Of a stretch of DNA of 64,000 bases, positions 49,271-58,590 are shown piece after piece. The notes below the pieces were generated by a model. That model saw only the letters and a list, made by a program, of their open reading frames with translations. It did not search any database and had not been told where the DNA came from. The stretch's first letter is position 1; every line of letters begins with the position of its first letter. Both the position numbers and the translations under genes were made by a program. The stretch covers positions 2,480,001 to 2,544,000 of the forward strand of contig CAIIXF020000001.1 of the NCBI GenBank assembly GCA_903813345.2, in the 5' to 3' direction. Source of the DNA: Owenia fusiformis (lineage: Eukaryota).

Positions 49271-52200
49271 CTAACGGGACCCTCTGCTACCACCAGAACC
49301 TGTATAAACACCATCAACATATAAACCATGCATAATATTGCACTGTGGTTCTTTGACTGTTTATTTTTAAGGTTTGATTGACTTACAAAAAAGTAATTTT
49401 GACGATAAACTTAAACCAAGGCATACCGTAGGGTCCTGACGATCTCTGGGAATAGTTACTGCTTTGCCTCACGGGGCCACCACTACTTTGGCCCTGATAG
49501 GTGTCACTGTACCCAACACTACCACCACTGGCTCCACCTAATATCAAATAGAAAATTCAAGTGTCAGCTTGTTATGATAGAGAATTAAATAGTTACTTTA
49601 CTGAAATGTTCACTTCAATTGTCTAGTTTACTTATAGACCAATAGTTTTACTTTGTCCAGCACTGTAAGAAGCATCCCCACCAGAACTGTATGAGGCAGA
49701 CTGTTGAGAGTAGTCTCCTCCTTGGACTGCCTGGGCTCCATAACTCCCCTGCTGGTTGTATCCCCCACTTGACGGCTGTGATGGCTGGCTTGACTGATTG
49801 TATCCACCTTGGTTGTAGGCTGTAGTAGACTGCTGGTTACCATAGTTTCCCTGTGCACTCTGCCCACCATATTGTTGTTGTTGTTGTCCACCCTGGTTAC
49901 CATAACCACTCTGTCCTTGGTTACCATAACTACTTTGTCCTTGGTTACCATAGCTTTGAGCTTGGTTTCCTTGGTTGCCATAATTTGACTGACCGCTCTG
50001 TTGATAGTTTTGGCCCTGATTACCACTGCCATAGTTTCCACTTTGGCCTCCAAAGTTTCCACCTTGGTTTCCACCCATGTTACCTCCTTGGTTTCCCTGG
50101 CCACCAAAGTTTCCTCCTTGGTTTTGGTTATTGTAGTTGTTGCCTTGGTTACCATATTGATTACCAGTATTTCCTCCAAATCCACCACCATAACCTGGAA
50201 TTATACAGTTGTAGGTTGAACATACCGGACATGACAGGTCTGAATAAAGCAATTAAAAGTGAAAGGAACTTTCAAACAATTCAAGGTTGATTTAGAGGAA
50301 CCAAGAGTTTTTGGAAAGCAGTACATGTATCATATCTCAACAAAAAGCTCACCATGTGAGCTAATAACCCAAGGAACATGAACAATACATAATACACAAT
50401 AAGTAATAACATTGCTGACTTTTTAGTATGAAAATAAAGAAGTTAATAATAAATAGAAAAAAAAAATACAAACCTTGATTTCCACCTTGGTTGCCACCCA
50501 TATTTCCTCCACCCATATTACTACCACCCATATTTCCACCTCCCATTCCCATATTTCCACTTCCCATACCCATATTACCACCACCCATTCCCATGTTACC
50601 ACCTCCACCACCACCCATTCCCATGTTACCACCTCCCATTCCCATGTTACCGCCACCTTGTCCTCCGCCCATATTTCCACCCCCCATATTGCCACCCTGT
50701 CCTCCCATGTTACCCCCAAACTGGCCACCACCACCACCTTGGTTGCCTGAAAGTGAAGAAAAAAGATTTCTAAAAGCTAAAAATGCAATACACCTATCCA
50801 ATATGGCATATTTTCAAACTCTTCATCTTGATATTTTCAACTTACATAAAACATATGGATATCTGTACAAGTTTCAAGCTACATATATTTAGGGTTGTGT
50901 ACTGGGAGGTTTTTATGAAGGCAATACAGAAATTTGCTTTCCACTCATTAGATAGAACCTCAGTAGGCATATGTAATACAGAAGAAAATGAAACAAAGTA
51001 AACATATCTGGTCTCTTATGAATAGATATATAGAAGAAACTGAAACGTACCACCAAAGTTGCCTTGGTTATTGAAGTTGCCGCCACCGCCACCACGGCCT
51101 CCTCTACTTCCTCCTCTGCCCCCGCGAGCTCCACCTCGGCCTCCTCTCAAGCCACCATCACCTCTTCCACCTTGTTGCTCATTATTCATGTTTTCTCTAG
51201 GTTCAGCCTTCTTGACATCAAGTGTATGTCCATTAATACGATGACTTCTTGTGAGTATCAACTTGTCTGCAATGTCGGTATCATGGAATGAGACAAATCC
51301 AAATCCACGACTCTTCCCGGTATCACGATGGGTCATCAAATCCAAGTTTTCAATACTTCCAAAATTTGAAAAATATGCCTGGAGATCAGACTCGCTCATA
51401 TCATCCTTGATGCCACCAACAAATACCTTCTTTGTGATAATATGTGCATTGGGTCCCATCTGTAAATAAAACAATATATTACATATATTGGTGACAAAAT
51501 TACGATCAACAGTTACAATTTTATAACCATGTATCTTTTACCATTCCAAATAAAATAAAATAAAATCTCAAAAAGATGATATCTTAAATACAGTAATAAA
51601 AAAATAGTGAAAAGTAACACCTCATAAATGGAACAATTTTCAAGAATCCTGTAAGTCATTATTTTCATGTTATTGAACCTCTGTAAAGTGAAAACTTAAG
51701 TTAACTGTACTTGAAAAAAGCATTTTTTTATCCAATAAACTTACAGTCTGTCAACCTTAATTTATGGAGAACTTTCTCAATTTGGGTGAAATTTCATGAA
51801 AACTCTTGTCTGCTCAATAAAGCATTTAGAGGTATATGCTTGAATCCACGACAGAAAACACAGAAAATATTCTTACGTCTTTGGGAATAGCCCTCTTAGG
51901 ATCGACTATCCTTCCATCTAATTTGTGAGGTTTCTCCTTCTGGCAGGCATCAACCATGCTGACCTTGGCATAGGTTACAAATCCAAACCCCCTGGACCTA
52001 AAACATGCAATAATTCAGTTCAGAATAAGTTAAACGTCTAACCTCATTGAATCAATGCAACCAATTGTGAAACATACCATTGACTTGTTACAATACTCGA
52101 TGTATGGCGTCAGAATCAAGTTCTGGTGATAACACCAACTACGAGTCAAGAATTTAGGCATATTTGTTTTGTAATGGGTGAACCTTTATAATTGCATATA

Positions 52201-53651
52201 AATTTGAAATAATAATGTATATATTACTTATGGGTCTGTGGATCCTTGATCACTACGCAATCAACAATATCACCAAACTTCTCAAAGTAATTTCGCAGAC
52301 TCTCATTTGTAGTTTCATAGTTGATGCCTCCAATGAACAGCTTGCACTGGTCTTCTGGGTCAGAACTTCCGTCGTTGTACTATAATAAAATTTACTACAT
52401 TACTAATGAAAAGTTTCAGGTCCTTAAACATCACTAAAGTGTAACATTAGTGGGCTATATAGTAGTGTTGTTGCGATGTGCCATAATCGTACATCGATGC
52501 ATCGGCAATTTTCAGGAGTAAACATCGATGCACATCGCGATGTACATCGAGAAAAAGTCCGAGAAAAGTGCACTGAAATACCGAACGCTTATGCACTAAA
52601 ATACCAAACAGAACAAATAAATAAGAGTACGCTGGTACATCCGGGAACTTCTAGTAAAGGTGAAATGAAAGTAAAAGTAATTTTTTTAGATTAATGGTTC
52701 ATTTCGACTAGGTAAAGCAGTTTTAAAGCGAAAGAATTTCAGAAAACATTGGAAAATGAAATAAGTCATGAGAAAGGTAAGCGATTTGCGTCAAAATAAG
52801 ATGAGGGTGATTTTTAGCAAATTAATTTTTTTTAAAAAACATCGATGTTTTGTTTCAGACATCGATGCATCGCCAGAATCAGCTTTGGCGATGTATATCG
52901 CGATGTATCGATTAATCGCGACAACACTACTATATAGAAGGGTCCATTGGTCGGCGACAGGAGCTGGGGATGTTTTATTGACCATTCTACATGAGAATCC
53001 GCTCAGTCTTACATCTTACAATAATTATGAAAACTGGACGAAAATGTTGTTAATGTCTTGACATTATAACTGGCTGTAAATTCAAAGTAGCAATCCAAAA
53101 GATTTTGACTAATAAACTGATCGCTTCTGGTGTTTTGAAATTTTTTGTGCGGTAATAAGACCAAAACTCGCAATTCAATTGATTTCATATTTTGTGATCA
53201 CAAATGACACATATATCACAGAATAGAAGGTTAGCGTAAAGCTGCAACAAAATATATGAAGATACCAATGTCTTCTTCCTTTATTTTGTAGATCTACCAG
53301 AAAATAGAACAATGTGTGGTGTAGCAATTTTTTAAAAATGTTTTCTTGAACATGTGTCTGAGCTCAATAGTGGTATAGAGCTTTCATTCACTTCTTAACT
53401 TCGGTTTGATTTACAACTTGCAATTCTGCTCCCCAGTCCAGTAGACAAAGAAAACAAAATTCATAAAATTCAAAAATGGAAATGAATTTCCGGTCTCATT
53501 AAAATGGAGTATTTCGATATATCTACTCTATGTTAATATTACTTAACATATACACTTCATAAAATATATATAAACGCATTATGAAATACTATATCTATCA
53601 CGTATTATGTCTTAATATCGTTTAAACAGCACTACAAACCTCTTTCACCAT
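49271..53651 (-). CDS. HNRNPA: hnRNP A/B family protein (two RRMs, RGG box, G/N/Q/Y prion-like domain, M9/PY-NLS). Exons 53651-53640, 52379-52228, 51997-51877, 51459-51051, 50746-50474, 50194-49652, 49537-49427, 49299-49271(TAG)
   Basis: [69 protein letters not shown] repeats; [18 protein letters not shown] resembles the hnRNP A1 M9 signal. Confidence 0.93.
52463..52929. mobile_element. hAT-type MITE in hnRNP A intron 1
   Basis: TIR tagtgttgttgcgat / atcgcgacaacacta; perfect 8-bp TSD ctatatag; catcgatg subterminal repeats. Confidence 0.88.
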
Positions 53652-56922: not shown

Positions 56923-58590
56923 ATGGGAAAAACAAAGGAAGAAGATTCTGCTGAGGAAGGTGAAGAAGAGGAAGAAGAAGAGTTTATTGTAGAGAAGGTT
57001 GTTGGTCATAGGAAGAAGAATGGAAGGACAGAGTATTATTTAAAATGGAAAGGGTACACAGAGTAAGTAAATCTTAATACATATTAAATAGTTCTGCAGT
57101 TATGAAAACAGTCATCTATTACATATGTTCACATTGAATCATTAAATATATAGTATATCATTCAGTTCTCTAATTTACATTTGTTTTGAACGTGTTTGAT
57201 GTAACCAAAGCTTAAAAACTCAAAAAGGTAGAAATAGTTATTAATTGTGGTGGTATAAGACCTTTAAGATTAAGTTGAACCTATGGCCATGATTTATTAC
57301 AGAGCCTATCCATTTTCTCACCCAGAATGGAGAAATATAAGGGTTGATGTTCGCAGTATTGATTAATGTTATTGATGTTAATCTTAGATTTTTATTATTC
57401 CAGAGCAGATAACACATGGGAGCCAAAAGACAATCTTGACTGCCCTGATCTGATAGCTGAATATGAAGCTAGCGTGAAAAAGAAGGAAGAGAAGAAAAGA
57501 AGTAAGGCAGATGATGACGATGGTCCAAGAAAAAAGAAAAAAGTGGCTGAGGTAGGTCTATTAAATCAACTTTAGAAAGAATTACCATAATATGCTCCGA
57601 TTAGCCATAACTTGGAAATCAATGTCATAGGTATCACATGGAGCTGTTACACTTTGGGTGGGCTCACCATTGACACAGATACTTTGAGGAAGATGGCTAG
57701 GCACGGCATGGATACAGATAGTTTAACAGCGAGATATTCCCTATAAGATAATCAAGAAACATTACATAAATTATGCCCAAAATTAGCCGCATGATGATGA
57801 ATGGTGGGGCTACATTCCTAATGTGACAGTTACTTTAGGCAAATTAGTAGAAGGTTCTCAAATTCTTTATTTTGTTGTTATATCAAATGTTATCTGTTTT
57901 TTTACTACTTCCTTATTTGACAGATTTTCAAATCAACTTAATATAAGATGAACATGTTGTAAAACCAGTATTAATGAAAAATACACAAAGGTCAAAAGCA
58001 TGTATAATGTACATTTAAACATTTCAAATATCATTTTAGGAAGAGGATAACAAACCACGCGGATTCGATAGAGGCTTAAATCCCGAGAGAATCATTGGTG
58101 CTACAGACAGCAGTGGGGAACTTATGTTCCTCATGAAATGGTAAGGTTCCATCTCATTTAAAATCAAATTTATTGCCATCTAACAGGTTCCTAAGATTCT
58201 GCGGTTGTTAAAAGGTTCATCCATGATCTTTAATCTATATTTCATAAGCAAGCAGATTTGGTCCAGAACAACCTCTGAGACAACCTCTTGATTATTGTTT
58301 GTTTATCTAATTTTATGATTCCACTTTTTCAAAACTTCTAAAATCTTAGAGTTGTTGTATCACCTGCTTTTTCAATGCTGGGGAATAGAAGTCATTGAGT
58401 TTGGTATAGTATTTGAACACTTTCCATCAATATTATAAACGGAACATACTTTTTCAGGAAAGACAGTGATGAGGCTGATCTGGTACCCGCACGACAAGCA
58501 AATATAAAATGTCCCCAAATTGTCATAGCATTTTATGAAGAAAGACTTACTTGGCACACACACAATGATGATAATGAAGACAATGATTAA
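56923..58590 (+). CDS. HP1: Heterochromatin protein 1 (CBX1/3/5 family). Exons 56923-57062, 57404-57551, 58040-58140, 58458-58590(TAA)
   Basis: Chromodomain [37 protein letters not shown]; basic hinge; chromoshadow [61 protein letters not shown]. Confidence 0.96.

Follow-up and report, generated by a model that had tools for sequence, protein, structure and literature searches.

Do the hnRNP A and HP1 genes, which stand head to head in the human genome at both CBX5-HNRNPA1 and CBX3-HNRNPA2B1, also share one promoter in an annelid, and could such a promoter act as a ubiquitous chromatin-opening element (UCOE)? The question is raised by a 64,000-bp stretch of the Owenia fusiformis genome (contig CAIIXF020000001.1 of assembly GCA_903813345.2, positions 2,480,001 to 2,544,000 of the forward strand; hereafter the window, in whose coordinates all positions are given), in which an hnRNP A-type gene on the minus strand and an HP1 gene on the plus strand are direct neighbours, placed 5' to 5' with no gene between them. 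An earlier reading of the window, made from the letters alone (the sequence-only reading), had proposed that both genes diverge from a CpG-enriched intergenic region of ~1.7 kb and that this region is a candidate ancestral UCOE. The data presented here make it highly probable that the locus is the annelid representative of an ancient HNRNPA-CBX(HP1) divergent gene pair with one shared, TATA-less promoter of ~220 bp. The main value added by the locus is the anatomy of this 220-bp promoter, together with its parallel to the human sister locus.

RNA starts and the shared core promoter

Two stranded raw-read RNA-seq runs of one study (X17 and X18) and two contig runs of uncertain kind (X1 and X3) were mapped over positions 47501-61500. 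Exons were sought by combining stop-to-stop open reading frames (ORFs) with Pfam matches, and were then joined by coordinates to obtain the reading frames. The stranded reads define eight introns on the minus strand and four on the plus strand, all 12 of which fit canonical GT-AG borders within the stated ambiguity, and every intron is backed by hundreds to thousands of stranded junction reads in both RNA runs (419-3827 at the junctions other than the two between exons 1 and 2; Table 1). Junctions and complete frames confirmed the start codons that had been read from the sequence, at 53651 for hnRNP A (minus strand) and 56923 for HP1 (plus strand), as well as the stop codons, which end at 49271 in hnRNP A and occupy 58588-58590 in HP1.

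Pile-ups of read “ends” were taken as RNA 5' ends, a convention that was checked by the 3' ends of HP1, which appear as “begin” pile-ups at 59423-59704. The starts of the two genes obtained in this way are spaced by 203-234 bp. With divergent starts less than 1 kb apart and spliced mature mRNAs issuing from both, the arrangement corresponds to a bidirectional promoter, and both genes are abundantly transcribed in both RNA runs. The supposed divergence from ~1.7 kb of intergenic DNA does not hold: this DNA is mostly HP1 intron 1 (53942-56917), a repeat-filled intron of 2976 bp that follows the non-coding exon 1 and ends with an acceptor 5 nt ahead of the ATG, HP1 translation beginning in exon 2. 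Nor do the RNA ends point to separate promoters, which the sequence-only reading had named as evidence that would count against it, as the starts lie ~220 bp apart. The plus-strand RNA depth across 54.0-56.8 kb is only 2-17, compared to ~1000 in exons, which makes a major alternative HP1 start in this region unlikely. On the other side of the core, the first exon of hnRNP A measures 26-40 nt and its starts lie 14-28 nt ahead of the ATG. In human HNRNPA2B1, too, just two codons are carried by the first exon.

The core promoter between the outermost starts has a GC fraction of 0.29 and contains 10 CpG, corresponding to an observed/expected ratio (o/e) of 2.19 and ~5 CpG per 100 bp. It consists of unique DNA, as the contig depth in the bin 53572-54038 amounts to only 0.06 in X1 and 7.06 in X3. 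Reading the sequence ~30 bp upstream of each hnRNP A and HP1 start revealed no TATA-like sequence at any of them. An E-box lies next to the hnRNP A starts, and a TTCCCGC motif, which by its consensus is a putative E2F site, lies next to the HP1 starts. In dinucleotide-preserving shuffles of 53640-53941, the E-box appeared in 94 of 5000, TTCCCGC on either strand in 134 of 5000, and both together in 6 of 5000. For motifs that were picked after seeing the sequence, the pairing of the two within the core is only suggestive.

An E-box near each presumed start, as had been described earlier, is thus found for one gene only: the E-box at 53685 adjoins the hnRNP A starts, whereas the second one, at 55155, is not at a start and lies in a repeat-like, intronic segment. 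Together with an NRF1-like site at 55201, which carries one mismatch, it is located ~1.3 kb inside HP1 intron 1, in a high-copy segment. Matches to the NRF1-like motif number 5 in the window versus 2.7 expected, which is chance level. The sequence TCTCGCGAGA at 54578 was considered as a promoter motif and rejected, for it is the centre of a nested miniature inverted-repeat transposable element (MITE).

Identity of the two genes

The protein translated from the minus-strand gene has 549 residues and comprises two RRMs, an RGG stretch and a G/N/Q-rich tail of ~350 residues. Pfam found RRM_1 twice, on exons 2 and 3 taken together and on exon 4, and one 195-residue block holding both RRMs aligns end to end with A-type proteins. 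Comparison with PDB chains gave the RRM2 exon a bit score of 96 against an RRM2-only chain of hnRNP A1, compared to 65.5 against Musashi-1, 62.6 against hnRNP D0, 60.4 against A/B and 58.6 against DAZAP1. For the first half of RRM1 the margin is small, with bit scores of 54.4 for A1, 50.9 for A2/B1 and 43.1-48.6 for the others. With ordinary single-unit proteins that bear the names A1, A2/B1, A3 or 87F, the two-RRM block shares 46.8-54.9% of its residues; the identity falls to ~44% for multi-RRM fusion predictions and unnamed rows, and is 39.3-40.5% to four D/DL proteins.

A maximum-likelihood tree was built from 27 rows. In it, the window protein was set beside 20 A-type proteins with names and, cut from the four D/DL proteins, six units of two RRMs each; these 26 comparison rows were picked from 120 stored proteins. 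The A clade is split from hnRNP D/DL at 100/100 support, and the clade with the window protein contains A0, A1, A2B1 and A3 in addition to arthropod, amphioxus, hemichordate and snail proteins named as A1 or A2/B1 homologs. Musashi and DAZAP1 are not among the rows and are excluded by the bit scores only. At the C-terminus, the GGPVR...SSGPYG stretch aligns with the GGP[MV][RK]...PY of A-type tails from arthropods, a hemichordate lineage and vertebrates in 10 of the 11 comparison rows, the amphioxus row being the one that does not align. A PDB search with the 36-residue C-terminal exon gave no chain at E<=10, and a Protein Atlas look-up of the RRM2 exon returned generic RRM clusters in which A and D types are not separated. 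Altogether, the sequence comparisons support the assignment of the gene to the hnRNP A subfamily (A0/A1/A2B1/A3; insect Hrb87F/98DE), in agreement with the sequence-only reading.

The tail of this protein, encoded by 49427-50746 on the minus strand, is unusually long and contains repeats of the GNMGGG type. Alternative splice-site use was also seen in the gene, with the joints 49533|49678 versus 49535|49650 and 51459|51877 versus 51459|51878.

The plus-strand gene encodes a protein of 173 residues whose translation shows a chromodomain, an acidic/basic hinge that includes RKKKK, and a chromoshadow domain. Pfam placed Chromo on exons 2 and 3 and Chromo_shadow (4.9e-15) on exon 5, and the best solved chains are Drosophila HP1, CBX5, CBX1 and CBX3. 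In the chromodomain alignment, the first of the positions that we presume to form the aromatic cage is Phe, as in the best Drosophila chain, whereas the next chain has Tyr; the Trp and Tyr of KWKGY are kept. By these domain and sequence matches, the gene belongs to the HP1 family (CBX1/3/5, Su(var)205), as previously proposed.

CpG content and repeats of the first introns

The window as a whole has a GC fraction of 0.347 and a CpG o/e of 0.39. Against this background, the longest CpG-undepleted block of the window (52250-55500) runs through hnRNP A intron 1 and the first exon of each gene as far as the middle of HP1 intron 1. Across it, 500-bp windows keep an o/e of at least 1 nearly throughout, with a single dip to 0.55 at 53001-53500, and the peak of the entire window, 1.92, falls on the core (53501-54000). 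The two gene bodies have an o/e of 0.27 and 0.33. The CpG enrichment noticed from the sequence is hence real (1.16 in the block versus 0.39 in the window). The classical vertebrate CpG-island criterion asks for a GC fraction of at least 0.5, and the fraction here is 0.29-0.36. In O. fusiformis and Capitella teleta, promoters are hypomethylated and gene bodies methylated, and the unmethylated regions of promoters are enriched in methyl-sensitive motifs, namely ELK3, YY1, NRF and ETS (PMC11292947). Together with the pattern of CpG depletion, these findings lead us to presume that the block is unmethylated in the germline.

Two further CpG-rich blocks were observed in the window. One of them, 9750-12250 (o/e 0.86, 66 CpG, E-boxes at 10075 and 11861), lies between an ORF for a C2H2 zinc-finger protein (7076-9433, minus strand, 786 residues, with an AT-hook) and the start of a nucleoporin gene; it may be another divergent promoter, in which case such blocks would not be special to the hnRNP A-HP1 pair. 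The other, 41000-42000, reaches an o/e of 1.4, carries TTCCCGC at 41636 and lies just past the last nucleoporin exon. No recognisable coding ORF was found downstream of it, and it may drive a transcript that is non-coding or has escaped annotation.

Both first introns of the gene pair are occupied by high-copy DNA. The contig depth is ~12000-21000 at 52.2-53.1 kb and 800-42000 across 54.0-56.8 kb, compared to ~10-30 in unique DNA. Inverted-repeat searches defined four elements (Table 1), the large inverted repeats having been missed by self-blastn. One of the four is a palindromic element nested within the MITE-like element of HP1 intron 1; a form without it is attested by the joint 54449|54722, which was seen in each RNA run (31-34 reads) and in a single X3 contig. 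This clean absence means either that the insertion is polymorphic or that the reads stem from further copies of the surrounding element. The adjoining repeat-like segment 54861-55438 is missing from a contig form with the joint 54860|55439 in both X1 and X3; no terminal inverted repeats of it were found. The foldback element farther downstream contains a single CpG and has the highest copy number of the region, with a depth of up to 42000. Scans of 47000-62000 for tRNA genes and Rfam families gave no match, which indicates that these high-copy elements are neither tRNA genes nor known RNA families. In addition, plus-strand RNA at a depth of ~40-50 was seen at 52171-53104, antisense to hnRNP A intron 1 and over its MITE-like element; these reads probably stem from the many copies of the element elsewhere.

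Table 1. Coordinates of the hnRNP A-HP1 locus and its first introns; paired counts refer to X17/X18.
Feature	Position	Strand	Details
Shared bidirectional core promoter	53680..53898	.	between outermost RNA 5' ends, 219 bp
E-box CACGTG, within ATCACGTGAC	53685..53690	.	6-20 bp upstream of hnRNP A starts
E2F-like TTCCCGC, then GC	53871..53877	+	5-28 bp upstream of HP1 starts
CpG-undepleted block	52250..55500	.	3251 bp, 120 CpG, o/e 1.16
hnRNP A-type gene, 9 exons	47968..53679	-	from junction reads, 5' ends and GT-AG fits
hnRNP A RNA 5' end	53665	-	46/39 molecules
hnRNP A RNA 5' end	53677	-	16 molecules (X18 only)
hnRNP A RNA 5' end	53679	-	29/13 molecules
hnRNP A exon 1	53640-53679	-	four codons, MVKE
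hnRNP A exons 2-3	52228-52379, 51877-51997	-	
hnRNP A exons 4-6	51051-51459, 50474-50746, 49652-50194	-	
hnRNP A exons 7-8	49427-49537, 49238-49299	-	stop codon ends at 49271
hnRNP A exon 9 (3' untranslated region)	~47968-48649	-	3' end to bin resolution, depth 881 to 17
hnRNP A junction, exons 1-2		-	246/187 reads
hnRNP A junction, exons 2-3		-	784/709 reads
HP1 (CBX1/3/5-type) gene, 5 exons	53882..59704	+	from junctions, RNA ends and GT-AG fits
HP1 RNA 5' end	53882	+	16/22 molecules
HP1 RNA 5' end	53884	+	10 molecules (X17 only)
HP1 RNA 5' end	53899	+	58/62 molecules
HP1 exon 1	53882/53899-53941	+	non-coding
HP1 exons 2-4	56918-57062, 57404-57551, 58040-58140	+	ATG at 56923
HP1 exon 5	58458 to ~59423-59704	+	stop codon at 58588-58590
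HP1 junction, exons 1-2		+	544/520 reads
HP1 junction, exons 2-3		+	3827/3488 reads
MITE-like element, hnRNP A intron 1	52455..52937	.	23-nt terminal inverted repeats, 26 CpG, high-copy (depth ~12000-21000, X1 and X3)
MITE-like element, HP1 intron 1	54356..54848	.	43-nt inverted ends
Nested palindromic element	54450-54723	.	inside 54356-54848, centred on TCTCGCGAGA
Repeat-like segment, HP1 intron 1	54861..55438	.	depth ~1900-3500; carries E-box 55155 and NRF1-like site 55201
Foldback element	55714..56474	.	761 bp; arms 243 and 87 nt, 92-96% complementary

Age of the pair, its human counterparts and the UCOE question

The antiquity of the pair is already known from the literature. A survey of 17 genomes found 595 non-paralogous gene pairs linked in at least four of 11 metazoan lineages, 593 of which were inferred to have been present at the origin of bilaterians, and named HNRNPA2B1-CBX3 as a strongly co-expressed conserved ancestral microsyntenic pair (CAMP), with r = 0.84 (PMC3514665). 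The Owenia locus shares with the CAMPs the combination of unrelated genes, 5'-5' orientation and a very short intergenic distance; the text of that survey gives no transcription starts or promoter anatomy for invertebrates. In the hagfish genome paper, Hnrnpa and Cbx serve as Hox-linked markers with amphioxus orthologs as outgroups (PMC10927551). These two were the only papers turned up by a literature search on the synteny of the pair. The earlier claim that the pair predates the vertebrate genome duplications is consistent with the locus and is borne out by the CAMP listing (PMC3514665), and the locus itself leaves knowledge of this antiquity unchanged.

The closest parallels of the core promoter are found in human CBX5-HNRNPA1, a head-to-head pair with a 0.6-kb TATA-less promoter that lies in a CpG island and contains E2F, MYC/USF and YY1 sites (PMC4721113). 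In both loci the promoter is short and TATA-less and lies in CpG-rich DNA that is presumably free of methylation. They also share motifs of the E2F and MYC/USF (E-box) classes, a non-coding first HP1 exon, a long intron 1 rich in repeats or transcripts, and the HP1 ATG in exon 2. Compared to the human locus, the promoter of Owenia is shorter (0.2 kb), as is HP1 intron 1 (3 kb versus 20 kb in CBX5), and the GC fraction of 0.29-0.36 differs greatly from the average of 66% quoted for human bidirectional promoters. In addition, the E-box here adjoins the hnRNP A start, whereas in the human promoter it is the CBX5 start that has the USF/MYC site upstream of it. At CBX3-HNRNPA2B1, a 0.4-kb promoter lies under the A2UCOE island, and the authors of PMC4721113, who note the evolutionary relationship of the two loci, coined “A1UCOE” for CBX5-HNRNPA1. 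The Owenia locus has in common with HNRNPA2B1-CBX3/A2UCOE the gene families, their divergence and a CpG-undepleted block that extends over both starts into the first introns (PMC6842454, PMC4330381); it differs in its GC fraction, which is below that of a CpG island, and in the large share of flanking CpG that derives from MITEs. With the promoters of O. fusiformis and C. teleta described in PMC11292947, it would share hypomethylation of the promoter and methylated bodies of steadily expressed genes, methylation being read here from CpG depletion.

On the basis of these features, we propose that the core is kept free of germline methylation and might be bound by methylation-sensitive, proliferation-linked factors. 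Next to the hnRNP A start this would be a MYC/USF/TFE-type protein on the E-box and next to the HP1 start a protein of the E2F type, possibly joined by others at ETS/YY1-like sites. By analogy with CBX5-HNRNPA1 and CBX3-HNRNPA2B1, the bound factors would recruit RNA polymerase II in both directions. The linkage would persist because a break within the 220 bp would damage both promoters, and the surrounding CpG-rich DNA would largely consist of young MITE insertions in both first introns rather than form a dedicated regulatory element.

Several observations weigh against this interpretation or limit its reach. The two motifs were chosen post hoc, and neither stands out in the window as a whole: the E-box occurs 5 times versus 3.7 expected, which is no significant enrichment, and TTCCCGC 3 times versus 1.1 expected, a count reached in 8 of 100 shuffles. 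Both RNA runs come from the same study, and the counts at the exon 1-2 junctions are 3-7 times below those of the downstream junctions. Such low counts are expected from first exons as short as ~40 nt; given these counts and the joints listed, minor alternative starts may nevertheless exist. The window hnRNP sits on a long terminal branch (1.59), weakly placed (90/49) beside an arthropod group, and no close ortholog of it was found, the top identity of RRM2 being 57%. Furthermore, expression of human CBX5 and HNRNPA1 can be uncoupled (PMC4721113), and therefore a shared promoter does not prove co-regulation.

This last point bears on a rival explanation in which two independent promoters merely abut, the genes being neighbours by descent, each with its own proximal motif and with no co-regulation. 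Each start cluster indeed has a motif of its own (the E-box at 53685 and TTCCCGC at 53871), with ~180 bp of AT-rich DNA in between, and uncoupled transcription of the human CBX5 and HNRNPA1 is reported in PMC4721113 and PMC6842454. We nevertheless consider this arrangement unlikely: the spacing of 203-234 bp falls under the limit of 1 kb by which bidirectional promoters are usually defined (PMC4721113, PMC3514665), the co-expression of human HNRNPA2B1 and CBX3 is high (PMC3514665), and the ratio of the exon 2-3 junctions is constant between runs (784:3827 and 709:3488) with both genes high, albeit in only two samples. It is less probable again that the CpG-rich “island” is an artefact, created by the insertion of transposons rich in CpG and irrelevant to promoter biology. 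Of the 120 CpGs of the block, 77 belong to three repeat-like elements (52455-52937, 54356-54848 and 54861-55438) with a contig depth that exceeds that of unique DNA by a factor of 100-1000, and these elements also contain TCTCGCGAGA as well as the second E-box and the NRF1-like site. However, the remaining 1697 bp still have an o/e of 0.93 versus 0.39 in the window, the most abundant element, the foldback, is CpG-poor, and no other part of the window reaches the o/e of the unique core, 1.92 in its 500-bp window and 2.19 between the starts. For the core, the artefact is accordingly rejected; the core is a genuine CpG-undepleted promoter, and what the insertions have inflated is the width of the island.

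An independent origin of the adjacency in this lineage, rather than inheritance from an ancestor, appears very remote. No invertebrate other than Owenia was found with the pairing in this analysis, as none of 80 metagenome loci (396 kb, tblastn) with an hnRNP A-like RRM contained HP1-like sequence; these loci are mostly short, cDNA-like contigs with at most 54% identity and do not make a fair test. Flanking genes of the Hox paralogon, of the NFE2L, SNX or SKAP type, were likewise not seen in the window; the stretches on either side of the pair, 41000-47900 and 59700-63400, yielded no convincing coding ORFs and, among the ORFs sampled, no Pfam matches. Against an independent origin stand the listing of the pair among those linked in at least four of 11 metazoan lineages (PMC3514665), as well as three features that recur at two paralogous human loci (PMC4721113), namely the orientation, the closeness of the two genes and an HP1 exon 1 without coding sequence.

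In contrast to the shared promoter, a UCOE-type function remains speculation by analogy with the human loci: its structural prerequisites are present, yet they are generic for annelid promoters. What defines a UCOE is its function, the ability to keep transgenes from being silenced (PMC6842454, PMC4330381). A true element of this type, in which an unmethylated dual-promoter block opens chromatin, shields a transgene and was inherited from the bilaterian ancestor of A2UCOE, would be favoured by the divergent promoters of two abundantly expressed genes within 203-234 bp and the CpG-undepleted block that reaches into both first introns, by the ortholog-level correspondence to the human locus with the A2UCOE island (PMC6842454, PMC4330381), and by the “sister” A1UCOE proposed at CBX5-HNRNPA1 (PMC4721113). 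Five repeat-like insertions within 3 kb of the starts would also fit constitutively accessible chromatin. We still regard such an element as quite improbable, because the GC fraction of 0.29-0.36 is far under that of vertebrate CpG islands, with ~5 CpG per 100 bp even in the core, and because intronic repeats make up the larger part of the supposed 1.7-kb element and 77 of the 120 CpGs of the block fall into repeat-like elements. Moreover, hypomethylated promoters are the rule in the annelids studied (PMC11292947) and the window has at least two more CpG-undepleted blocks (9750-12250 and 41000-42000), which together indicate that these features are not specific to the hnRNP A-HP1 locus. A literature search for invertebrate or ancestral UCOEs found nothing on the subject.

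A narrower version confines the function to a core of 0.2-1 kb (~53300-54355), a “proto-UCOE” whose regulatory grammar would have been kept since the protostome-deuterostome ancestor. This grammar may consist of a TATA-less, unmethylated promoter with an E-box by hnRNP A and an E2F-type site by HP1, and may also include the non-coding HP1 leader exon and the minimal first coding exon of hnRNP A. The version is a long shot as well; if true, the core would resist silencing when moved and serve as a compact constitutive bidirectional driver for spiralian transgenesis, and chromatin opening would not need high GC. For chromatin-opening activity as such, the locus gives no support. Its significance lies in the shared promoter, which shows at base resolution how one of the few non-paralogous pairs that have stayed head to head from annelids to humans is arranged in an invertebrate. 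By this anatomy, ~220 bp can suffice for the entire shared control region, whose motif classes match those of the human sister locus. The question why the pair stays linked becomes testable with small constructs, and for annelid transgenesis the locus is a candidate source of a constitutive promoter that works in both directions.

Elsewhere in the window, a NUP155-type nucleoporin gene extends over ~28 kb (12865-41000, plus strand), with exon matches to Nucleoporin_N and Nucleoporin_C. Two intronless DEG/ENaC (ASC family) paralogs, at 27336-29057 and 32081-33781, lie on the opposite strand within its introns, and their closest named relatives form an Owenia fusiformis protein family with 41-66% identity; for one intronless gene of the window, the best named relatives, proteins of O. 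fusiformis, have 61-66% identity. A nucleoporin intron also contains an open ORF of 463 residues (34341-35729, minus strand) with no convincing Pfam family, apart from a weak eIF3g-like stretch, beside a tandem repeat with coding units (35883-36244); the ORF and the adjoining repeat may be the remnant of a mobile element. Finally, three copies of TTTCGCGAGA at 6288-6787, spaced by ~150-330 bp, are apparently part of another repeated element.

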